Notes under the pieces: generated by a model
What the model was told of the DNA's origin: nothing
The model's database searches: none
Seen by the model: only the letters and a program-made list of their open reading frames with translations
Part shown: piece after piece, positions 1 to 12,195 of the stretch
Layout: every line of letters begins with the position of its first letter
How positions within the stretch are numbered: position 1 is the stretch's first letter
Position numbers and translations under genes: made by a program
Assembly: GCA_029838195.1 (NCBI GenBank)
Contig: JALGVJ010000004.1
Coordinates: forward strand, 96,001-160,000
DNA from: Promethearchaeota archaeon
GTDB lineage: Archaea; Asgardarchaeota; Lokiarchaeia; Sigyniarchaeales; SOKP01
Reading direction: 5' to 3'
Length of the DNA: 64,000 bases

Positions 1-1
1 G

Positions 2-184
2 AAAAATTTAATTATCGTTACACAAGAAGATAAAATCTCAATACATCCAAAAGTTATTAGAACCTGTCCCAAGTGTGGCCATGAAGAGGCAGAAACTTGG
101 CAAGAACAAACGAGGAGTGCAGATGAGCCGAGTACTCATTTTTTTAGATGTTTAAAATGTAGATATACTTGGCGGGAATATTAA
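2..184 (+). CDS. tfs: Transcription factor S (TFS/RpoM family), C-terminal part, truncated by window start
   Basis: Manual translation ...RTCPKCGHEEAETWQEQTRSADEPSTHFFRCLKCRYTWREY*: TFIIS-type zinc ribbon with QTRSADEP acidic hairpin; not in ORF track. Confidence 0.93.
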   Translation, partial: KNLIIVTQEDKISIHPKVIRTCPKCGHEEAETWQEQTRSADEPSTHFFRCLKCRYTWREY

Positions 185-242
185 TTATTTGTTTAAATCT
201 TTGAAATGTGACCTAACCAAGTTAATAATAATTAAATATTGC

Positions 243-446
243 TTACGTTAGTACTTCTAAAATTTTCGTTAATATTCGAGCTTTACCACCCGTGGATTGT
301 AAGAGGGTCTTTCCGCATACTAAACATTCCACATCTGTGGCGGCGCAACCAAAAACAATTTGTTGATTTCCACAATTAAGGCATTTGACCCTTAAAAACC
401 TGCTTTTAGGTTGCGGTATTAATTCTTTTTTTTTCTTGTTGCGCAT
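243..446 (-). CDS. rps27e: 30S ribosomal protein S27e
   Basis: [20 protein letters not shown]...[16 protein letters not shown]; follows L44e as in archaea. Confidence 0.97.
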
Positions 447-465
447 GAGCTTACACCTTCTTTAA

Positions 466-747
466 TCAAACTTCCTGTAATTCTATTTTTTTCACACGAT
501 ACGATTTAGCATAATGTTTTTTATTACATTCCGTGCATTCCAAAACTGGAACAGTTTTTTTGTTAATTTTAGCATTTTTATGAAAAATTTCTTTGGGAAA
601 AGATCCATAACCTTTTTTCTTTCGTTCTAATCTTCTCCTTCCGTGATTTAACATCCGTTCTTTTCCTTTTTTATATATAGTTACATTATGCACCGTATGT
701 GCGCGACAATAAGGACAATAACGACGGATCGTTTTAGGGTACTTCAT
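466..747 (-). CDS. rpl44e: 50S ribosomal protein L44e (eL42)
   Basis: MKYPKTIRRYCPYCRAHTVH...GRRR...GYGS...LECTECNKKH. Confidence 0.96.
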   Translation of the reverse strand: MKYPKTIRRYCPYCRAHTVHNVTIYKKGKERMLNHGRRRLERKKKGYGSFPKEIFHKNAKINKKTVPVLECTECNKKHYAKSYRVKKIELQEV

Positions 748-1002
748 TCATCATCCCACATAAATCGAAAATAACTTAGGATTTATAATTTTATATTGAA
801 ATTAAATTTTATTAATAAATTAGAAGTAAACTTATCTCTTTAATTAAAATCTTTATCGAAAAACTTCACGGATATGATGATGGGCACATTTGTATTATAA
901 AATAGTTTTAACGGCGCGTGATCTCTCATTTAAAAAACGAATTTGAGGAAACAAAAAATAATTTAAATAGCACTTGATTTATTGTTATAAAAAAGGAAAG
1001 TA

Positions 1003-1929
1003 GTGTTCATGTTTAAAGAGAAATTTCGAAAGGGCATTATTAGTGCTAAACAATTTAATAGGGAAGATCTCGAATATATTTTAAAAAAAGCAAAGGAAAT
1101 GATGAGTATTCAAAATTCCAATATTTTACAAGGAAAGATATTGGCAACCTTATTTTTTGAACCTTCTACAAGGACACGTCTCAGTTTTGAATCGGCGATG
1201 TATCGATTGGGGGGAAAGGTGATAGGATTTCAATCAAGAGAGGTTTCCTCTATCAAGAAAGGAGAATCCCTGGCAGATACCATTAGAACAGTGCAAAATT
1301 ATTGTGATTGCATTGTCATACGGCATTCATTAGAAGGAGCTGCGAAATTGGCTTCAAGATTTGCTAAAGTTCCTATCATTAATGCAGGATCGGGTAGTGG
1401 AGAGCATCCAACGCAAGCTTTACTGGATTTATTTACAATAAAAGAAGAATGTGGTACGATCGATGGATTAAATATCGGGATCATGGGTGATTTAAAATAT
1501 GGAAGAACTGTTCATTCCCTTTCCGTATTATTAATAAATTTTGATGTGAACATATATTTTATTAGTCCAAAAGAATTGGTCATGAGAGATAGCGATAAGG
1601 ATTTTTTACTCTCCCGTCAAGTAAAGGTTAAAGAAATTTTCGATTACAGAAAGGTCTTAGATATTTTAGATGTACTTTACATGACAAGAATTCAAAAAGA
1701 ACGATTTATAGATCCTGAAGAATATGAAAAAATGAAAAATATCTATAAATTCACGGAGAAGGATCTGGAGCTAACTAAAGATAATTTTATTTTACTACAT
1801 CCTCTTCCCCGGGTTACAGAGATTTCTTATAACATAGACAAATATGAAAACAAAGCAAAATATTTTAAGCAAGTATATTATGGATTGCAATTACGAAAGG
1901 CTCTTTTAGCCGAATTATTAGCAGATTAA
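1003..1929 (+). CDS. pyrB: Aspartate carbamoyltransferase catalytic subunit
   Basis: FFEPSTRTRLSFE, HPTQALLD, GDLKYGRTVHSL, TRIQKERF, HPLPR motifs. Confidence 0.97.
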   Translation: MFMFKEKFRKGIISAKQFNREDLEYILKKAKEMMSIQNSNILQGKILATLFFEPSTRTRLSFESAMYRLGGKVIGFQSREVSSIKKGESLADTIRTVQNYCDCIVIRHSLEGAAKLASRFAKVPIINAGSGSGEHPTQALLDLFTIKEECGTIDGLNIGIMGDLKYGRTVHSLSVLLINFDVNIYFISPKELVMRDSDKDFLLSRQVKVKEIFDYRKVLDILDVLYMTRIQKERFIDPEEYEKMKNIYKFTEKDLELTKDNFILLHPLPRVTEISYNIDKYENKAKYFKQVYYGLQLRKALLAELLAD

Positions 1930-1949
1930 ATCTCTGTAAAATTTTAAAT

Positions 1950-3956
1950 TTATGAATTTTTAATGCTAAAAAATGGGATATTCGACTTGAATAAAAGTCG
2001 CTCTATTTCTCGAACTTCTTGATTGTCAATTGAGGGCATGAACACGTTAAATAATGACCCTCCATTCATGAATTGAGATAGTTTTTCATGTAGTTTAATT
2101 CTTTCTTGTAAGGATAACGATGTTTTTTTCTTTATTAACGTTGTATTGAATTTTATTTGAGAATTTTTCATTTCTCCTCCATATTCCCGATGTTTCTTTA
2201 ATCCTCGATTAAGGACATGAGGTTGAGTTAATGTATAATTGATATTTTCATCTTCTTTCCGCTCTTGAATCAAGGAATTCATTTCTTTTAAGATTTTTAG
2301 TCCAAAATGCATGCTACTTTGAGATTTTTCAAAATCTAGACCACAGTGGGTAATAATGGCTTCCCTAAAGTTAAAAAAACTAATAGATCGTACAGCTGAT
2401 TCCATACATTCTTTTGCGGAATCCTCAAAACATTTAGAAATAAAATAATTCCACCATTTGTTCTTTCCTATTTTTTGAGTAATAAAAGATTCTTTAAAAG
2501 AAAACAATTCAAAAACAGAATTTAACCGATCATCAACTTTTTCAAGAAAAAAATCGTCATTACCTTTAGATAATGATGCTATGGATAGAAGATTTATCAA
2601 AATTTTATCCATAATTAGTTGGTTTGCTATATGATTATTTCTTGTCTCTTTTGATATTTTAATAAGAGCGGAATTTAACAAATTAGAGTATTCATTTACA
2701 TGAAAAATAATGTTATTTTTTCCACCATTGATTAGCCGAATTTTTTGAAGAAAAGAAACTTTATCATTCTTTAAAAATCTAGGTAATTGAATTAAAATTA
2801 ATGGCTTGACAGGAAAACCACCGTAAAAACCCTCATTTTCATTTAAAATTTGAGTGATTTTCTTAAAAAATGTTAAATTCTCCTCATTTTTATCTTGTTC
2901 TTGAAGGCTCTGAGAAAAGTCTAATCCTAAATTCGGAACGAAGGAATCTCTTGTTTTATTTAAAAAATAGGTTATTCGGGATTGTAATACTGATGATATA
3001 ACAGGATTATATGAATGATTTTTGAATTTATCCAAAAAAAATTGATCAAAATCCCCTAAAATAATATCTTCTGAAAAGAATTGAGAGATATTTTCTAAAA
3101 AATCGAAACTTTTTAAGATACATTCGGTAATAGAATGTTGGTCATTATTATTAAGAGGAGGCAGATGTTCTTTTTCTTGAATAAAATTCATTAAATTGTT
3201 TGTATTCAAAAGACAAGAAAAAGGGCGTAAATTCCAAGTATTTAAATGTAATAATAAAATATCATTAGAAAGATATGAATCCGCTAAATTATTTGGTAAT
3301 AAATTTAATAATAAAAATTGTTCAGAAACATCGGAACCTAATTTTTTCAAATAATGTGCGGGCAGAATATTATTATCATTAAATAACTTAAATACCTCAT
3401 GAGGAGGACTTCCCAGACGCGTGAGTTTATGCCTAACTTTCTCAAGGCCATTTTCTATTAAAATTGCGTTAATTAATTCTCTCATCAAGGGGGCAGTAAG
3501 ATATTCTATATTTGTTTTTTGGAGCCTCTCAATAGTCTCATTTGCTATTTTTTTAGCCAAATTTTGCTCCAAATTTCCTTCTTTTATTAAATATTCCTCG
3601 ATTTTTTCGATTTTAAAAGGCTCCTTAGAATACTTTGAAGTTCGTATCATCACTGTTTCATTCTCTTCATTTAAAATATTTTCAATGGTTTCAAGACTTT
3701 TTACCATTTTTTGTCCTAAAGGCGTGAGTAAATAGCCATTTTTAGAGCTCTTAATGAGATTATTATTTTTTAATGTATTCAGGTGGAACGATAAATTAAC
3801 ATTATTCGAATAGTGCATCGAAATTTTCTTCTTTAAATAAGAAAAAGACAGGGGATGAGATGAGCGCTGCAACGATTTCAATAAATTGATTCTAACTTCA
3901 TGGCTAATAATTTTTAATTGCTCTTCTAATAATCGTGCGATTTCGTCGGCGAGCAT
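1950..3956 (-). CDS. ArsR-like winged HTH + ATP-cone + degenerate class III (NrdD-like) ribonucleotide reductase body lacking the glycyl-radical domain
   Basis: N-terminal wHTH (SHEVRINLL...LSFHLNTLK...GYLLTPLG); ATP cone (IRTSKYSKEPF...LTAPLMRELIN...TRLG); NrdD-like LPNNLADSYLSNDILL and GGSLFNV; no C-terminal CxxC..CxxC or RxxGY. Confidence 0.75.
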   Translation of the reverse strand: MLADEIARLLEEQLKIISHEVRINLLKSLQRSSHPLSFSYLKKKISMHYSNNVNLSFHLNTLKNNNLIKSSKNGYLLTPLGQKMVKSLETIENILNEENETVMIRTSKYSKEPFKIEKIEEYLIKEGNLEQNLAKKIANETIERLQKTNIEYLTAPLMRELINAILIENGLEKVRHKLTRLGSPPHEVFKLFNDNNILPAHYLKKLGSDVSEQFLLLNLLPNNLADSYLSNDILLLHLNTWNLRPFSCLLNTNNLMNFIQEKEHLPPLNNNDQHSITECILKSFDFLENISQFFSEDIILGDFDQFFLDKFKNHSYNPVISSVLQSRITYFLNKTRDSFVPNLGLDFSQSLQEQDKNEENLTFFKKITQILNENEGFYGGFPVKPLILIQLPRFLKNDKVSFLQKIRLINGGKNNIIFHVNEYSNLLNSALIKISKETRNNHIANQLIMDKILINLLSIASLSKGNDDFFLEKVDDRLNSVFELFSFKESFITQKIGKNKWWNYFISKCFEDSAKECMESAVRSISFFNFREAIITHCGLDFEKSQSSMHFGLKILKEMNSLIQERKEDENINYTLTQPHVLNRGLKKHREYGGEMKNSQIKFNTTLIKKKTSLSLQERIKLHEKLSQFMNGGSLFNVFMPSIDNQEVREIERLLFKSNIPFFSIKNS

Positions 3957-4111
3957 CAGTTATTCTGTAATGTCCCAATTTTTTTAGAAAATATCTAAAA
4001 AATAATAGGACTCTTACTTATAAAAAAATTTGGGACAGATCTCATGGAAAATTAAATTCTAATAATATCCCGGTGATATTTTATGAAAAATAGAAAATTT
4101 TTTTGTTTGTC

Positions 4112-4732
4112 TTACCGGGCAGAGACCGCAATCCTTTCAATTTCGTCTTTTCTTTTAATTGCCTTTGATTCTTGGCTATTTTGAGCCGCACTAATAAGTT
4201 CTCGGGTAATGCTTTCTTCAAATCGTCTGATAGTATTGTGGGAATCTGTCGCAATTGCTTGGACTAAAAGTTTCAATGCAAGATCTACTCTTCTTTGAGG
4301 CGAAATGTCCACGGCGGAAGCATAGGAAATGCCCCCCATGGCAATCCTAGTGGTTTCTTCTCGTGGAGCTACGTTAACGATAGCATCTACTAACACTTGG
4401 ATGGGATTTTGTCCGGTATTTAAATGAATCAAGGTAAATGCTTCCTCGACACTTCGGATAATTTTTTTCTTTTTTCCAGAATTATAGGAGGACTTATGCC
4501 CTTTTATCTTATTATCAATGAATCCCGGTGAGAGTAATCGATTAATGAATCGTTCGACAATTGAAACCTTTTGTGATTTCCAAAATTTTTTATGAGAATG
4601 ATTTCCTCCGGTACTTGGTACGATTATTTTTTTCAAATTAATGTATTTTTCCAAGCTAAAATCCTTTATTTCGATACCGTCGAAAGACCATTTGTTAAAA
4701 AGTTTAATATCTTCTTTTTTCGTTTTACTCAT
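4112..4732 (-). CDS. rps7: 30S ribosomal protein S7
   Basis: KLFNKWS, IVERFIN, NPIQVLVDAIVNVAPREETTR, AVDISPQRRVD, KRKDEIERIAVSAR. Confidence 0.97.
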   Translation of the reverse strand: MSKTKKEDIKLFNKWSFDGIEIKDFSLEKYINLKKIIVPSTGGNHSHKKFWKSQKVSIVERFINRLLSPGFIDNKIKGHKSSYNSGKKKKIIRSVEEAFTLIHLNTGQNPIQVLVDAIVNVAPREETTRIAMGGISYASAVDISPQRRVDLALKLLVQAIATDSHNTIRRFEESITRELISAAQNSQESKAIKRKDEIERIAVSAR

Positions 4733-4868
4733 TGATCCACAGCATAATTAATATTAAATTACTTATTATTGTAAATAATTGCTCATTTTAATTTTTTATG
4801 ATAAGTAATCTTGAAATACAAAATTTTAAGAGATATCACGTATTAAATTTAATCATATATTATAAAAG

Positions 4869-5312
4869 GTGAATACGATCGGAAAAACGAAAGGCCTATA
4901 TGCTGCAAGAAAATTAAAAAATAATCGCAAGAAATTTCGATGGTCAAAATCTAAATATAAAAGAAAAAAATTGAAATTAAAGCAAAAAGTAGACCCTTTA
5001 GAAGGTTCACCTCAAGCTACGGGTATCGTTCTCCAGAAAGTGGGGAGAGAAAGCAAGCAACCCAACTCTGCGATTCGAAAATGTGTCCGTGTTCAATTGA
5101 AGAAAAATGGAAAAGGAATTACTGCTTTTTTACCTGGTGATGGTGCATTAAACTTTATAGATGAACATGATACCGTACTTGTAGAAGGAATTGGAGGATC
5201 AAAAGGAAGAAGTATTGGAGATCTTCCCGGAGTTCGATGGAAAGTAGTTAAGGTAAATGGTGTCAGCTTGGAGGCTCTAATTAAAGGAAAGAAAGAGAAG
5301 CCCATCCGTTAA
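4869..5312 (+). CDS. rps12: 30S ribosomal protein S12 (uS12, archaeal/eukaryotic S23 type); true start possibly ATC at 4878
   Basis: [59 protein letters not shown]. Confidence 0.97.
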
Positions 5313-5424
5313 TCGAAGCTTCATTATTATTAAAAAAGTTCCACTACTCTCTTCTTGAATCTTTTTAATTATCTAAGGAATTAACGAATTAAAAGAAAGA
5401 TAATATTACGTGTTTAAAAACAAG

Positions 5425-5898
5425 CTAATTTTTCGTATTTATAATAACGTTATCCACATCAAAATGTCGTAGTACGAGATGTTTTATTTTTCTAATCATT
5501 GATCCATTTTTACCGATTGCTTTTCCTCGATCTTGGGGCCTTACGGAAATGATGACCGTTTTCTTTTCATTTCGGGACTCTCTAATCTCTATATTTTGAA
5601 TTTTAATGGAATTTCTCGAAGTATTGAGAATATATTGGATGAATTTATTGAGTTGTTCAGAAAAGGGGATCACGTCGATTTTCTTTTGAAGTCGTGCCAT
5701 TAAATCTTTCACGTGCTCTCCATCCCGACCAATAGCTTTCCCTATATCCTCTTTTTTTACCAGAAAGATTATTACTTCGGAATCATCATTTGGTAATTGA
5801 AAGGTCAAACAATCTTTAATAATAGCTCCGCTAATATTATTAAATAAAGACATTAACTCCATGGACTCCCGATCAATTTTAATATTTTTTTTCAACAT
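5425..5898 (-). CDS. nusA: Archaeal NusA (two KH domains)
   Basis: IGKAIGRDG and RGKAIGKNG KH loops; follows L30e in rpo cluster. Confidence 0.93.
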   Translation of the reverse strand: MLKKNIKIDRESMELMSLFNNISGAIIKDCLTFQLPNDDSEVIIFLVKKEDIGKAIGRDGEHVKDLMARLQKKIDVIPFSEQLNKFIQYILNTSRNSIKIQNIEIRESRNEKKTVIISVRPQDRGKAIGKNGSMIRKIKHLVLRHFDVDNVIINTKN

Positions 5899-5937
5899 TT
5901 TAAGAACCCAACCTGCTTTAAGAATTCACGATGCTTT

Positions 5938-6294
5938 CTATTTTTTAGGTATGACGGAGAGAATATCTGAATCTCCTGGATCCACAATTCCTAACACGGA
6001 TACCCAGTAAGGTAAAGCTAAGGCTAAACCTAGTTCGAGACTCGACCCTTTATATTTATAAATATAAGGTTTGTCCTTCAAGAGAGAAACATAATAATTA
6101 AATTGAGTTTCTAATTCTTGAGGAATATTATTCGCAATAACGAGCATTTTAAAGGGATTATTTCTCAAGGCTTTAAGAACTTGATTTTTCCCATATATTA
6201 TTTTTCCCGTCTTAAAAGCAACTTTAAGATTGGTCTCGAAATCAATTCCTTTCTTTGCTTTTTTACTTCGTGAAAAATCGATTTTACTCGACAT
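5938..6294 (-). CDS. rpl30e: 50S ribosomal protein L30e
   Basis: KTGKIIYG, GSSLELG, VSVLGIVDPGDSDIL; between rpoA'' and nusA. Confidence 0.94.
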   Translation of the reverse strand: MSSKIDFSRSKKAKKGIDFETNLKVAFKTGKIIYGKNQVLKALRNNPFKMLVIANNIPQELETQFNYYVSLLKDKPYIYKYKGSSLELGLALALPYWVSVLGIVDPGDSDILSVIPKK

Positions 6295-6419
6295 ATATTC
6301 GTGTAGTATTTGTAGTTATAATTAATATATTTATTTTTAAAAAAAAAACCTTTATGTTAATTACATGTTATATTTCATGGTATTTATTAAATTGTTAGTA
6401 AATTCCTTCTTCATAAAAA

Positions 6420-9200
6420 TTATTTCTTTCTAGATTTAATAAGCTCCAGGTTTTTATCGAGATCAAACATGATATGGACCGATCCGGTGCCTATTGGCGA
6501 CACTTGTCCTACAATAACGTTTTCGGGTATTCCTAATAATCTTTCTTCCTCTCCATAAAGACCGGCATCTAAAAGTTGGTTAACGGTTACTTCGAAGGCA
6601 GCCCTGGCAAAAACGCTTGATTTTGAACCTGAAATCCCGTGTCGGCCAATGGATTGGATGGTTCCTGTACTACACATTAAATCGGCCAGAATTAATAAGT
6701 GACGCAAATCCACGTCTAACCCTTGTTGTTCTAAAACTTTTTGAGATTCTATTATGATTAAGTTACGAGCGGCTTCAATTCCGAATAATTTTTCCACTTC
6801 ATGTAAGTGATTGGAAATGGTTCTTGTAGGATCTACGCCTTCAATTTGAATGGCTCCTTGTAAATTCGTACCTTCGGTTTTAATTACCCATTCATTTCCA
6901 TCTTCGGTAGGGGTGAGAAGACCCCTTTTAATTCCTCTTATTCCTTTTATTACTTTTTTTAATATTTTTTCACGCAATTTTTGTAAACTCTGTAGATCTT
7001 CTATACCGGGGTCAATGATGATAGAATTCTTTTCTCTCTTGATAGTTCCTTTTTTCTTATACCTCTTTAAAATTTCGGGAATTTCATCAACATTAATCCC
7101 TTTTTTTTCACAAAGTTCGGGTATGAGATTTACCACGATATTCCAATTCACGAAATCAATATCCGCATCCGAGGTGATTTGCTCAATTCGTATTTGCTCA
7201 ATTCGATTATGTACCTTTATCGCTTCTTCTTCGCTCTTGTTATAAGGCTCTTCTAAATATATCGTCATCTGAGGAGTACTAGGAAATCTACGAGCATCTA
7301 CGATTTCGATTAAACGTGGAAGACCTTGCGTTACTGAAAACTCTTCTACGCCAGCGTAGTGAAATGTCCGTAATGTATTATGGGTAATTAAACCCTCCGC
7401 TGTAGTGAAATTTTCATGATTTTCAATTGAAAAATCGTATAAATATGGTGTAGGTGATTTTATTAATCTAATAGAAATAATTTCATCCCATATAATATCA
7501 CTTTGCAATGCTTTATGTAGAATATTCAATTCCTCGCTGATATCGATGCCCTCTTCTTTTGCCCTTCGTTCAAATATTTTTATATACCGATGAAGGGTTT
7601 GGCGTCTGATTTTTTGCTTGCGAGTATATTTTTTAATACTTGCTGCTAAAGCAGAATGCGCATCTATTTTTAATTTCATGTAGAGATTATTTAAAACTTT
7701 TCCAAATCCCGGAATTATATCTAAGCTATCACGTGATGAATCTTTTGATAGCTCTCTCTCCACTATTTTATTTAAAATAATATTCTTTTCAGATATGATT
7801 GAGCCAATTTTTTTCTTATATGTTGGAGCATATTTTCCTGAAATCCTTAAACAATAACAATTTTTTTCCTTGAATTTTGAAGCAATTATTCCAAATCTAG
7901 ATAATAATAAGCATATCCCATCTCTTAATTCCTTGGAACTTGTACTTGCCCTAATTTGCATTCTTTCGGCAGAAAAATTACCATCTCCATCAAAATAGGC
8001 TTGAAGTAACCCGGCTATAAAATCATCAGGCGCATTTAATGCCCACGAGGGTATAAATTTATTTCTTGCTCCTTTTCCGCAAAGTCTTTTAAAAATTGTT
8101 CCCAATAATGATGAAGAAAGAATAATTGATGAATTTGGTCCAAATTCTCCTTTTTCTTCATTTAAACTCCAAGAAATAGAATAGCTATTCGCAAAATCTA
8201 ATACTCGCTTCTTAAAATTTTCATCAATATTGGTTAATGCTATGAAATTTCCGGCATTAGTTCCTTCAGATAAATATGCTCCCATGATCCAACCAAAAGA
8301 AAAATTAAGAGGTAATTTATCCGGAATTACTATATTCGGATTCGAACAGGTTTTAGGATATATCTGACTATCTTGAAGCAAATCATTTTTCCCGGTTTTT
8401 AACGCTTTTAGTAATCCATTTACTCCAACTGGGATAGTATATTCTATATTGAATTCTTCCTTCCGGTTTCTTCCCATCCAATCTTTTGATTCTTTAACTG
8501 CATTTAACTCGGAACCAAACCAAGCCTCTTTTTTTGATACGTATTGTTTGATGTCCATGAAATCGATGGGATCTTCTGTCGGCAGATTTTTTATTAAGGG
8601 AATCCGATCTCCTATTTTTAATGTTCGCCCCTCGACAGGAATAATTTTATTATTTTTTCTCATCAAAAATGAATGTGAAAGGGTTGCCTCTATACTTCTA
8701 CCCGAACGTGTCTTTATCCTCAAAATTTCTCGTTTAGCAGGATGTCTACTTACTTGTTGAATGCGCCCCCAGTGAATCTTTTCATCTTGACCTAAACAAG
8801 GAACTTTTATTTCCTTAGAATCTAAATTTAATACTTCACAGTCGCCAACATGTTCTAAAATTTCTGCGTTTGACATTAATTCATCAATAAAATCTCCAAT
8901 ATTCAAGATTTTAGTATAGTTTCCCTCTTTTATGATTACTTTTTCTGTTCCCGGAATGCTCATCTGTGTTCCCGGTTCGCCAATAGATTGTGCGGCTACC
9001 GTGCCGACAGGTTCAGAAGCTTCCACGATTGCATTGGTATAATTAATGAAAATTTTATTCAAGAAATATTCTAATTGCTCTTCCTCTAAGTCTTCATCCT
9101 TAATTTTATCTCTAATCTTATCGATTAAATCTTCAGGAATACCATCTTCTTTCAATTCTTGTAATTTTTCTTCCAAAAACTTTTTTGTTACTTTTACCAT
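6420..9200 (-). CDS. rpoA2: RNA polymerase subunit A'' (Rpo1C) precursor with intein; about 398 aa after splicing
   Basis: VGTVAAQSIGEPGTQM|intein|TLRTFHYAG...VTQGLPRLIEIVDAR; VDLRHLLILADLM; ARAAFE; ENVIVGQ. Confidence 0.97.
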   Translation of the reverse strand: MVKVTKKFLEEKLQELKEDGIPEDLIDKIRDKIKDEDLEEEQLEYFLNKIFINYTNAIVEASEPVGTVAAQSIGEPGTQMSIPGTEKVIIKEGNYTKILNIGDFIDELMSNAEILEHVGDCEVLNLDSKEIKVPCLGQDEKIHWGRIQQVSRHPAKREILRIKTRSGRSIEATLSHSFLMRKNNKIIPVEGRTLKIGDRIPLIKNLPTEDPIDFMDIKQYVSKKEAWFGSELNAVKESKDWMGRNRKEEFNIEYTIPVGVNGLLKALKTGKNDLLQDSQIYPKTCSNPNIVIPDKLPLNFSFGWIMGAYLSEGTNAGNFIALTNIDENFKKRVLDFANSYSISWSLNEEKGEFGPNSSIILSSSLLGTIFKRLCGKGARNKFIPSWALNAPDDFIAGLLQAYFDGDGNFSAERMQIRASTSSKELRDGICLLLSRFGIIASKFKEKNCYCLRISGKYAPTYKKKIGSIISEKNIILNKIVERELSKDSSRDSLDIIPGFGKVLNNLYMKLKIDAHSALAASIKKYTRKQKIRRQTLHRYIKIFERRAKEEGIDISEELNILHKALQSDIIWDEIISIRLIKSPTPYLYDFSIENHENFTTAEGLITHNTLRTFHYAGVEEFSVTQGLPRLIEIVDARRFPSTPQMTIYLEEPYNKSEEEAIKVHNRIEQIRIEQITSDADIDFVNWNIVVNLIPELCEKKGINVDEIPEILKRYKKKGTIKREKNSIIIDPGIEDLQSLQKLREKILKKVIKGIRGIKRGLLTPTEDGNEWVIKTEGTNLQGAIQIEGVDPTRTISNHLHEVEKLFGIEAARNLIIIESQKVLEQQGLDVDLRHLLILADLMCSTGTIQSIGRHGISGSKSSVFARAAFEVTVNQLLDAGLYGEEERLLGIPENVIVGQVSPIGTGSVHIMFDLDKNLELIKSRKK
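7377..8960 (-). mobile_element. Intein with LAGLIDADG homing endonuclease in RpoA'' (528 aa)
   Basis: Starts Ser (SIPGTEKV) after GTQM, ends His-Asn (YDFSIENHENFTTAEGLITHN) before Thr+1; block B IEATLSHSF; endonuclease motifs IMGAYLSEG and LLQAYFDGDG. Confidence 0.95.
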
Positions 9201-9213
9201 ATTTATTCCCTCC

Positions 9214-12195
9214 TTATTTTAATGAAGCTTTCCATTCTTTATATCCTTTAGTCATTTTCCCTCTCCAAATTGCATTTTTTCCAGTTTCCCTTTCGTATTG
9301 TGCCCGTAATTCCTCTTCGCTCATTTCTTCAATTAGTTTATGCTTGTCAATCTCCGATTCTGCAGATTCAACTTCTGCTTCTTTTTCAATTTTTGTTTCC
9401 GTCTTAGTTTTTGTTTTTTTTGATTCTTCAGCTTTAGAGATCATCTCTCTTGCTTGTTTTTCATATTTTTGAAGTTCCTCTCTTATTTTACTTACATCAA
9501 GACTCTTGGCTTTCAGAAGCAAGACATCTAAATTCACTGCATCTCCATGATCGGTCATTTGGGGATTTATTCCATCATCTCCATATTCAAATTGAATGAT
9601 ATTTTTATCTGCATTCCTTACGGTCCCATCGTTTTCAATGACCATATCTTGTAGTGCATTCACTAAACGACGTTGCATGTAGCCGCTCGTGGATGTCCGA
9701 ACTGCCGTGTCCACGAGTCCTTCCCTACCACCCATGGCATGGAAAAAGAATTCTGAAGGCTGTAGTCCATTTCGATAAGAAGAAGCAACAAAACCTCGTG
9801 CTTTTGGCGTTAAATCATTTACCTTGAAATGGGGCAATGTTCTCCACGTATATCCCCTATTAATTCGCTCTCCTCGAATAGCTTGTTGACCTACTACGGC
9901 GGACATTTGCCCTAAATTCAAAATATTTCCCCTCGCACCCGATTTCGTCATTATTACGGAATGAGCCTCATCTCCGATGTAATTAGCGGCTATTTCCATC
10001 GCTTTATTTCGAGCTTCTGCTAAGACTTGTCTTATTCGAAGTTCTAAAGTTTCTCTCATTGAACGTCCCGGAGCTCTTTTTAAAATCGTTGTATCATTAG
10101 TATAATACGCTTCAATTAATTTATCACATTCTTTGTCAGCAATCTCTAATTCTTCTTGAATTTTTTTATAGGCTTCTCCTTTCACATATACCTCATCAAG
10201 TCCCATTGTCATTCCATTTTTCCGAATGATGTATAACAACATTTTTGTTGCGCTGTCTAAAAATTCTCTACCTCGAGCATTCCCATGATCTTTAATGATT
10301 CGCTGTAATATACTGTTAGATTGCATCGGTCCAAAGGAATTTTCATCAATCGTTCCCGTGATTAATTTTCCATTCTTTATCATCACGTATGCATCATACG
10401 GACAATCTAATTCCTTACATTCCTCCCCTTCTATTGTATAACATTTCTTACAGAATTTAGAACGCACGTGAATATTTAGATCTTCCGGAAATAATGCACT
10501 AAAAATTTGTTTTCCCGAATATAAAGGTTCAGGCTCCTTAACCACGGGTTCAAAATCATTTATGGAAAAATTAGGATGCGTTTTGAAAATATCTGCCATG
10601 TAAAGTAATTTTAAAGCTTCCTTTTTTGTATAAAGAGAATCCTTACTGGTGAATTGAAATACACTGGAAATAAAATCTTGAATGCCCCCCAAAATAGGGC
10701 CCCCAAAACGAGGAGATAAAATGTGTTCTTGAACCTTTAATAAAAATTCTGCCTCTGTTCGAGCCTCTTCACTCTGGGGAACGTGTAAATTCATTTCATC
10801 TCCATCAAAATCCGCGTTGTAAGGGGGACAAACAGTAAGGTTAAGTCTAAAGGTTTTTCCATCCATGATTTTTACTTCATGGGCCATGATGGACATTCGA
10901 TGGAGGGAGGGCTGGCGATTAAAGAGGACTAAATCACCATCATTTAAGTGACGCTCCACGATAAACCCTGGTGCTAACATGTCTGCTATGATCTTCCGAT
11001 TCTTTACATATCGTAAATCAATCCGCCTGCGATCATTTCGAATGATATAATTCGCTCCAGGATGCTTGTTCGGACCATTTAATACTATTTGTTTCATTTC
11101 TTCAATGTTCCAATCATTTACATTGGTTGGAATCGTTAAAATTTTAGCGATATCGATGGGCACCCCCACTTCATTAATGCTAATGTGAGGATTAGGCGTG
11201 ATCACGCTCCGTGCTGAAAAATCTACCCGCTTGCCGCTTAAATTGCTCCGAAATCGCCCTTCCTTTCCCTTTAATCTTTGAGTAAGAGTTCTTAAAGCTC
11301 GTCCGGATCGGTGCCGTGCTGGAGGAATCCCTGAAACTTGATTGTCAAAATAAGTGGTTACGTGATATTGTAATAATTCCCATAAATCTTCTACAATCAA
11401 GTGAGGAGCACCGGCATCAATATTTTCCCTTAATCTCTGGTTAATACGGATGACATCCACTAATTTATGGGTTAAATCATCTTCTGAACGAATTCCACTA
11501 TCCAAGGTGATAGAAGGTCTCGCACAAACAGGGGGAATGGGTAATACCGTAAAAATAACCCACTCTAATCGAGCATTTTCCGGTTGAATGCCTAAAATTC
11601 GCATGTCACCATCCGGAATCTTTTTTAACCTCTCTAAAATTTCAATAGGAGTTAACCTTCGGGATCCCTTCCCCTCTTCCTCCTCATAAAAAGTTGTGGG
11701 TTTTTCTATTATGATCTTTTTTCTTTTCGTCCCACAATAAGGACAAATCCTGTTTTTCCGGGCTAATTTGAAAACATTTCGCGTGGTGTCTACATCGCCT
11801 TCAAAATACATTTGACGATGCTTTGATTGTTCTTTTCTAAACCGTTCTTTATCCTCTTCAGAAAGTAATAATCGGGAACATTCCGGACAAATCGAACGTA
11901 AGACTTTTAATACCTTTTTAGCATAACCAACATGAATGACTGGACGAGCTAATTCAATATGACCAAAATGCCCTAGACAATTCGAAACCAAATTACCGCA
12001 AGTTTGGCAACGCTGGCCAGGTTCAATCGTTCCTAAGCGCTGATCCATCAAACCAGATGGAATGGGAAGTCCATCTTCGTCGTATGTGTCTGCCGTAATT
12101 ATCCGTGCAGCAGACATTTTTCGAATCTCATCCGGACTCAATAATCCGAACTTGATTTTCTCGATTAATTTTGTTTTAGAAATGAAGTGGCTCAT
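9214..12195 (-). CDS. rpoA1: RNA polymerase subunit A' (Rpo1N) with about 100-aa C-terminal extension
   Basis: CLGHFGHIELARP, GKEGRFRSNLSGKRVDFSARSVI, NRQPSLH, YNADFDGDEMNLH, GGREGLVDTAVRT. Confidence 0.98.
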   Translation of the reverse strand: MSHFISKTKLIEKIKFGLLSPDEIRKMSAARIITADTYDEDGLPIPSGLMDQRLGTIEPGQRCQTCGNLVSNCLGHFGHIELARPVIHVGYAKKVLKVLRSICPECSRLLLSEEDKERFRKEQSKHRQMYFEGDVDTTRNVFKLARKNRICPYCGTKRKKIIIEKPTTFYEEEEGKGSRRLTPIEILERLKKIPDGDMRILGIQPENARLEWVIFTVLPIPPVCARPSITLDSGIRSEDDLTHKLVDVIRINQRLRENIDAGAPHLIVEDLWELLQYHVTTYFDNQVSGIPPARHRSGRALRTLTQRLKGKEGRFRSNLSGKRVDFSARSVITPNPHISINEVGVPIDIAKILTIPTNVNDWNIEEMKQIVLNGPNKHPGANYIIRNDRRRIDLRYVKNRKIIADMLAPGFIVERHLNDGDLVLFNRQPSLHRMSIMAHEVKIMDGKTFRLNLTVCPPYNADFDGDEMNLHVPQSEEARTEAEFLLKVQEHILSPRFGGPILGGIQDFISSVFQFTSKDSLYTKKEALKLLYMADIFKTHPNFSINDFEPVVKEPEPLYSGKQIFSALFPEDLNIHVRSKFCKKCYTIEGEECKELDCPYDAYVMIKNGKLITGTIDENSFGPMQSNSILQRIIKDHGNARGREFLDSATKMLLYIIRKNGMTMGLDEVYVKGEAYKKIQEELEIADKECDKLIEAYYTNDTTILKRAPGRSMRETLELRIRQVLAEARNKAMEIAANYIGDEAHSVIMTKSGARGNILNLGQMSAVVGQQAIRGERINRGYTWRTLPHFKVNDLTPKARGFVASSYRNGLQPSEFFFHAMGGREGLVDTAVRTSTSGYMQRRLVNALQDMVIENDGTVRNADKNIIQFEYGDDGINPQMTDHGDAVNLDVLLLKAKSLDVSKIREELQKYEKQAREMISKAEESKKTKTKTETKIEKEAEVESAESEIDKHKLIEEMSEEELRAQYERETGKNAIWRGKMTKGYKEWKASLK

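Follow-up and report, generated by a model that had tools for sequence, protein, structure and literature searches.

A winged helix-turn-helix protein built on a non-catalytic class III ribonucleotide reductase in Asgard archaea: a candidate nucleotide-responsive regulator

Analysis of a 64,000 nt stretch from the genome of a Promethearchaeota archaeon (assembly GCA_029838195.1, contig JALGVJ010000004.1, positions 96,001–160,000; hereafter 'the window') showed that the gene at window positions 1950–3956 of the minus strand, referred to below as X, codes for a conserved protein, maintained by selection, that joins a DNA-binding domain of the repressor type to the allosteric half of NrdD, the class III ribonucleotide reductase (RNR). 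Databases name the proteins of this family 'anaerobic ribonucleoside-triphosphate reductase'; as the label of an active reductase this is wrong, and X is very probably not an RNR. By analogy with known regulators, the balance leans towards X having descended from a class III RNR of archaea, with catalysis lost, and being a putative one-component, nucleotide-responsive DNA-binding regulator tied to pyrimidine and deoxynucleotide synthesis. No description of a catalytically dead NrdD, or of one fused to a helix-turn-helix (HTH), was found in the literature searched, which included papers on the phylogeny of RNRs and on P. copri NrdD; in an Asgard Tn7 preprint, nrdD appears solely as an attachment site.

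The open reading frame (ORF) of X is intact (668 codons plus a stop) and yields a protein of 668 aa. The frame, profile matches and homologs together define a winged HTH (wHTH), an ATP-cone and a pseudo-NrdD body, all encoded on the minus strand. The wHTH, of the ArsR/SmtB type, covers aa 1–98 (window 3663–3956) and was recognized by Pfam, alignment and fold: aa 12–87 matched DUF7347 at 41.6 bits (E 1.5e-10), above the 27.6-bit cut-off. A putative ATP-cone of the archaeal NrdD type follows at aa 103–180 (window 3417–3650; Pfam, alignment and structure). The corresponding profile (PF03477) matched aa 103–174 with an E value of 8e-4 and 20.3 bits, under its 25.8-bit cut-off; among 30 aligned orthologs it reached E ≤ 1e-3 in 15, the best value being 2.6e-7. 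The cone carries an invariant, non-canonical motif, MIRTS.YSKE.F. According to the alignment, aa 181–250 (window 3207–3416) comprise the cone-to-barrel linker (R.HKLTRLG.PP.E) and the first barrel elements, with LLHLN replacing the HxHD motif, and the cone and post-cone region shares 32% identity with the N-terminus of a true Asgard NrdD. The rest of the NrdD alpha/beta barrel (aa 251–668; window 1953–3206; alignment and structure) lacks the finger-loop Cys and has Ile448 in place of the catalytic Asn. Pfam NRDD matched aa 453–666 along positions 283–505 of its 562, in the C-terminal half of the profile (E 2e-18), and the GGSLF of X was aligned with the GGHIF of P. copri NrdD. Both the NRDD and the DUF7347 profiles matched all 30 aligned orthologs.

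An AlphaFold 2 model of X was built on the 30 orthologs (predicted local distance difference test, pLDDT, 75; predicted template modelling score, pTM, 0.66). Its top structural matches were solely class III RNRs (Foldseek E 4e-19). VIA-align gave Z scores of 24.5 to P. copri NrdD (8p27), 24.1 to T4 NrdD (1h78; root mean square deviation 3.7 Å over 422 residues) and about 24 to the S. thermophilus and T. maritima NrdDs, with class I and class II RNRs ranking behind (Z 16–19). The alignments with cone-bearing NrdDs spanned model residues 106–668, and hence included the cone. As modelled, the body of X has the ten-stranded alpha/beta barrel fold of RNRs and glycyl-radical enzymes, as the original prediction required. 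The alignment to T4 NrdD paired model residues 197–668 with T4 residues 33–539. The Zn-binding Cys of T4 NrdD are residues 543, 546, 561 and 564, and Gly580 carries its radical; X therefore stops just before them. Neither a four-Cys Zn site (CxxC..CxxC) nor an RxxGY sequence is present in X. The original prediction, made from the sequence alone, of an ArsR-like wHTH (aa ~1–95), an archaeal NrdD-type ATP-cone and a diverged NrdD body ending soon after GGSLFNV without Zn site or glycyl loop was thus borne out, the cone as a probable one with a profile match below the cut-off.

The equivalents of the catalytic residues were located by fetching E. coli NrdD, identifying C175, C384 and G681 in its sequence, and aligning it with the X family using MAFFT. 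A mapping of this kind had been proposed in the original prediction; none of the three is kept in X. The column of C175 (the second active-site Cys; T4 C79) held Ser or Gly in the family, and that of the finger-loop C384 (the thiyl Cys; T4 C290) held Leu, Ile or Tyr (Leu in X). The Gly-loop columns around G681 were absent from the family altogether. In the column of the catalytic Asn (T4 N311; E. coli N405) the family has Ile or Val (Ile448 in X), and HMMER paired T4 'NNLGVVTLNLPRIA' with 'LIMDKILINLLSIA' of the X family here. The HxHD motif, which in P. copri NrdD binds the substrate triphosphate (PMC11226230), reads A-L-L-H in X. Both active-site Cys, the Asn and HxHD were lost in every ortholog examined; all 30 orthologs lack a Cys in the finger-loop region, and the sole invariant Cys of the family is C538. 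Against the NCBIfam NrdD equivalog TIGR02487 (cut-off 326 bits) X scored 66 bits, compared with 439 bits for a true Asgard NrdD (P0435, 711 aa), which keeps RPFC, QCCR, CxxC..CxxC and SRVTGYY. With the thiyl Cys, the second Cys, the Asn, HxHD and the Gly loop gone, the known mechanism of ribonucleotide reduction is not open to X.

More than 460 homologs of 648–673 aa share the architecture of X. It is carried by 113 species genomes, nearly all labelled as Promethearchaeota, Hod-, Hermod-, Thor- or Odinarchaeota, or 'uncultured archaeon' (one is labelled Nanopelagicaceae). Of the 91 genomes that represent the window's GTDB family in a 300-genome sample of the phylum, 87 carry the short form of ~660 aa. 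Since the loss of catalytic residues is conserved among orthologs, X is not a truncated copy, a point that the original prediction had left to a survey of homologs. The family is under purifying selection: the ratio of non-synonymous to synonymous substitution rates (dN/dS) was 0.21 overall across 71 ortholog pairs (the pairs are not independent and the figures are descriptive). By domain, it was 0.14 for the wHTH, 0.08 for the cone, 0.074 for the post-cone segment and 0.24–0.28 for the remaining barrel. Constraint is thus strongest in the cone and post-cone segment and weakest in the barrel. In real NrdDs, the cone and linker sense ATP or dATP and pass on that signal.

When 1.8 billion representatives were searched by profile, a second tier of proteins, of 700–890 aa, with the same three domains came to light. 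By source label, these long forms, including those of ~710–780 aa, come from Jord/Freyarchaeia, Baldr-, Hel-, Odin- and Njordarchaeia, and also from records labelled Methanomethylicia/Verstraetearchaeota and Bathyarchaeia (labels of metagenome-assembled genomes, unverified). Of 75 metagenome copies, 74 keep the four-Cys Zn ribbon and eight keep a finger-loop 'GCR'; none has the C175-equivalent Cys, and none combines 'GCR' with a genuine RxxGY. The full catalytic set was absent from every long form examined. Together the long and short forms suggest a stepwise erosion, in which the window's family is the most reduced. The original prediction contained neither this spread beyond the lineage (Asgard and TACK-labelled records) nor the Zn-ribbon long forms, nor the second dead NrdD described below.

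Modelled alone, the N-terminal 102 residues of X gave a pLDDT of 93.5 and the topology alpha1-alpha2-alpha3-alphaR-beta-beta-alpha5. Of the 50 best PDB matches, 49 were wHTH transcription regulators (the exception was a methyltransferase); those at template modelling scores of 0.65–0.75 include BigR, HlyU, SqrR, NolR bound to DNA, CzrA, SmtB and CggR bound to DNA. The recognition helix corresponds to aa 55–64, and N54, S56-F57-H58-L59 and L62 are invariant in orthologs. Against the NCBIfam ArsR/SmtB metalloregulator model NF033788, X scored 37 bits, below the cut-off of 55. The modelled domain has a bona fide repressor-type fold and is a putative DNA binder. Another enzyme-plus-wHTH fusion is encoded on a different contig of the same genome (C82; L132:675-3224, minus strand), where a DUF7347 wHTH is joined to an HdrA-like flavoprotein of 849 aa that has Fe-S clusters and an MvhD/FlpD domain.

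The original prediction had also called for a search for a separate, intact RNR, and such enzymes were found. The window's genome (96.6% complete) codes for a class II reductase of the RTPR type (746 aa; TIGR02505, 444 bits; NPCGE present). No true NrdD was found in it, and no NrdG matched TIGR02491 or TIGR02495 above cut-off; a true NrdD above the curated cut-off was present in 51 of 61 genomes of the window's family. The genome also contains a second dead NrdD (contig C89; L001:1177-2997, plus strand), a 606-aa protein with an ATP-cone and an NRDD domain that lacks the HTH, the C-terminal radical/Zn domain and the catalytic Cys. It belongs to an Asgard-wide family of ~600-aa proteins, ~45% identical to the true NrdDs of ~705–711 aa; a Cys persists in the finger-loop region of some members (register uncertain). 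Most relatives hold a true NrdD plus two dead paralogs. The gene adjoining that of the 606-aa protein (L001:3175-4473, plus strand) codes for a protein whose N-terminus is folliculin/longin-like and which carries a Gtr1/RagA-type GTPase domain. Separately, stand-alone ORFs of ~85–130 aa that match only NrdD profile positions 506–581, the glycyl-radical domain, were detected (G101:C24:7-240, G158:C28:22813-23043 and G034:C76:4551-4769); these may be 'spare-part' radical domains.

The convergent neighbour of X in the window is pyrB (1003–1929, plus strand), which codes for the catalytic chain of aspartate carbamoyltransferase (ATCase). The match to TIGR00670 (366 bits) marks it as a genuine ATCase gene, and the two genes lie 20 bp apart, tail-to-tail as originally described. 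The gene order in the family is rpoA'-rpoA''-L30e-nusA-S12-S7-X, followed by the convergent pyrB and then L44e-S27e. A convergent, adjacent pyrB was found at 74 of the 75 family loci with enough flanking sequence, and S7 lay upstream of X at 60 of 71, often with genes inserted between them. Outside the family, pyrB is convergent with X in two further GTDB families and one Baldrarchaeia record, lies upstream of X (pyrB->X) with gaps of 9–20 nt, implying an operon, in two lineages, and lies downstream of it (X->pyrB) in a Helarchaeota record and one further family. Among 44 metagenome loci with enough flank, 19 had a convergent pyrB within 1.5 kb of X. In addition, X adjoins a true nrdD at three loci and nrdJ at two (one in a Bathyarchaeia record). 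These neighbourhoods support a tie between the X family and nucleotide metabolism: pyrB adjoins X in three different orientations, and a few lineages place nrdD or nrdJ next to it. PyrI is encoded elsewhere in the window's genome, unlinked from pyrB. A structure prediction for an X-PyrB complex scored 0.00, which gives no answer and is evidence for neither side.

The region upstream of X was aligned for 81 loci. It consists of motif A (ATATCACCYACATATTAT), a spacer of ~24 nt, a B recognition element (BRE)/TATA (AAAATTCCTAAATTTTTATATA), 10 nt, and motif B (ATATTATTTAGTTAAGCAG), most positions being at least 80–90% identical. Motifs A and B both contain ATATTATYTA and their starts are 60 bp apart. 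The most divergent lineages retain ATATCACC-N3-ATATTAT, and the window and locus L024 have it. In the window, on the minus strand, motif A reads ATATCACC-GGG-ATATTAT (4062–4079), the BRE/TATA-like element is AAATTTTTTTATAAG (4017–4033), and a motif B-like element, CCTATTATTTTTTAG (3995–4009), occupies the expected transcription-start region. When four genomes were searched with the motif A 17-mer, allowing up to two mismatches, the best match (zero or one mismatch) was the X promoter itself in three; in the fourth the best match lay elsewhere, and at two mismatches the counts equalled those of a reversed-pattern control. The motif of the window's family was not conserved upstream of the long forms of other families. 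A conserved bipartite element placed around the TATA box would fit autoregulation by X, without proving it. Co-transcription of X with rps12-rps7 is unlikely, given that X has its own conserved BRE/TATA and that in many genomes other genes separate S7 from X.

How X might work is suggested by known systems. NrdR, the Zn-ribbon and ATP-cone repressor of nrd operons, likewise joins a DNA-binding module to an ATP-cone; its nucleotide-dependent oligomerization controls DNA binding, often with autoregulation (PMC9110341). X differs from it in having a wHTH and no Zn ribbon, in carrying a whole dead RNR barrel, in being archaeal (Asgard and TACK-labelled records) and in showing no NrdR-box-like sites at nrd genes and no shared motif upstream of nrdJ; the two are homologous in the cone only. 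X matches NrdD itself in having a putative cone, then the linker and then the ten-stranded barrel, but it lacks the thiyl Cys, second Cys, Asn, HxHD, Zn site and glycyl-radical domain, adds the N-terminal wHTH, and falls far below the NCBIfam NrdD cut-off. The ArsR/SmtB repressors (BigR, HlyU, SqrR, CzrA and NolR) and the DNA-binding domain of CggR resemble X in whole-domain topology and in a recognition helix of the S-x-H-L type; in X, however, the putative sensor is a 570-aa module derived from an enzyme, not a metal or thiol site inside the wHTH. PyrR, with its phosphoribosyltransferase fold and control of pyr genes, and CggR/SorC offer a precedent for an enzyme fold kept as the ligand sensor for genes of its own pathway, as is proposed for X, which is likewise linked to pyrimidine genes. 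Their folds are unrelated to that of X, and PyrR binds RNA and keeps its enzyme activity, whereas the catalytic residues of X are gone. In the mechanism we propose as the most economical, X would dimerize as NrdD does and so display a pair of wHTH domains; ATP, dATP or another nucleotide would bind the cone, possibly with use of the old allosteric sites; and binding would shift the conformation or oligomeric state of X, changing its affinity for DNA as in NrdR. X may autoregulate through motifs A and B, and may control genes of nucleotide metabolism.

Several observations weigh against a nucleotide-responsive regulator of this kind. Where the canonical phosphate-binding sequence of the cone is KR(D/E)G, that of X reads R-T-S-K, and the ATP-cone score of this copy is below the Pfam cut-off. 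The convergent arrangement with pyrB may reflect inherited synteny rather than functional coupling. The promoter element could be bound by another factor, and the neighbouring pyrB-L44e spacer is also highly conserved in the same genomes, which leaves autoregulation unproved. Position-weight matrices for motifs A and B scored no better than on shuffled sequence in 71 pyrB-L44e intergenic regions and in 29 nrdJ upstream regions, and no regulon is therefore defined. In one genome, a single two-mismatch match lying ~360 bp ahead of nrdJ was put down to chance on account of these matrix scores. The inference of an 'archaeal NrdR analogue' in the original prediction is accordingly supported in part: in its favour are the dead body and its conserved loss, the separate RNRs, the repressor fold, the selection on the cone and the segment after it, and the gene neighbourhoods, but the motif of X does not recur at the pyrB or nrdJ promoters. 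It is a reasonable, putative functional analogy, not membership. A wider reading is offered more tentatively: an ancient family of archaeal transcription factors may have arisen by fusion of a wHTH to an RNR, with catalysis lost afterwards, such that cone and linker would read nucleotide pools on behalf of pyrimidine and deoxynucleotide genes, as a counterpart of NrdR and PyrR.

Pseudoenzymes often regulate active paralogs, and most relatives of the window's genome hold just such a set, a true NrdD with two dead paralogs. X could accordingly bind nucleotides and modulate an NrdD paralog, in a heterodimer, or ATCase, the wHTH being a tether or interaction module and not the reader of a gene-specific operator; that pyrB is linked to X, operonic with it in two lineages, and unlinked from pyrI also points this way. 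Regulation at the protein level is nevertheless unlikely, because the wHTH shows the complete topology of ArsR/SmtB repressors and its recognition helix is invariant, no true NrdD was found in the window's genome (96.6% complete), and PyrI is present elsewhere in it. It is more doubtful still that X remains an enzyme, through a new, non-radical activity in a remodelled pocket or as an RNR completed in trans by a separate glycyl-radical domain. Purifying selection acts on the barrel (dN/dS ~0.25), which has invariant polar residues (D450-K451, H537-C538 and Q578-P579-H580), and stand-alone glycyl-radical-domain ORFs of ~85 aa occur in a few related genomes; against this, both active-site Cys, the Asn and HxHD are missing throughout, the genome has no NrdG above cut-off, and the barrel is the least constrained part of the protein. 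The in trans version was rejected since, with the acceptor Cys absent, a radical donor would have nothing to oxidize in X. The idea that X is a pseudogene in decay, or an artefact of assembly or annotation, to which the missing C-terminus and the weak NRDD sequence match might point, is refuted by the intact 668-codon frame, the hundreds of full-length orthologs with the same ends, the dN/dS of 0.21 and the conserved promoter.

Hundreds of X-family proteins, together with the ~600-aa dead paralog, are mislabelled by annotation pipelines; class III RNR capacity, and hence anaerobic deoxynucleoside triphosphate (dNTP) synthesis, is consequently overestimated in metabolic reconstructions of Asgard archaea. 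X itself, a near-universal Lokiarchaeial protein in which a DNA-binding domain is coupled to the allosteric half of an RNR, is a concrete, testable candidate for the control of dNTP and pyrimidine supply. To our knowledge, archaea largely lack NrdR. Should X prove to be the regulator proposed here, it would offer a clear example of an essential radical enzyme put to new use as a sensor, and would provide a nucleotide-pool regulator in the closest prokaryotic relatives of eukaryotes.

Some further features of these loci were recorded. A perfect 9-bp inverted repeat, TTTTTTAGA-N5-TCTAAAAAA (window 3980–4002, minus strand), follows the TATA box and precedes the start codon of X; it is not conserved in other genera. 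An exact 15-mer, ATCACCTACATATTA, which corresponds to the motif A consensus of other genera, occurs within a repeat at three contig ends of the window's genome (C41:180, minus strand; C41:65759, plus strand; C59:61, minus strand). An Rfam search of window positions 1–12000 gave no match. The divergent pyrB-L44e intergenic region (window 748–1002; 71 loci) is almost invariant across the family, as in TAATTATTTATAAATTTTAAATTTTATTAGTTCTG. In the window, rps12 (4869–5312, plus strand) is inverted with respect to the rpoA-L30e-nusA-S12-S7 order of most relatives, as it is in L024 and L029. Finally, in a Jordarchaeia record (L124) and a Verstraetearchaeota record (L159), the long form follows the same trio of genes, for an HMG-CoA synthase, a thiolase and a DUF35-like OB protein.

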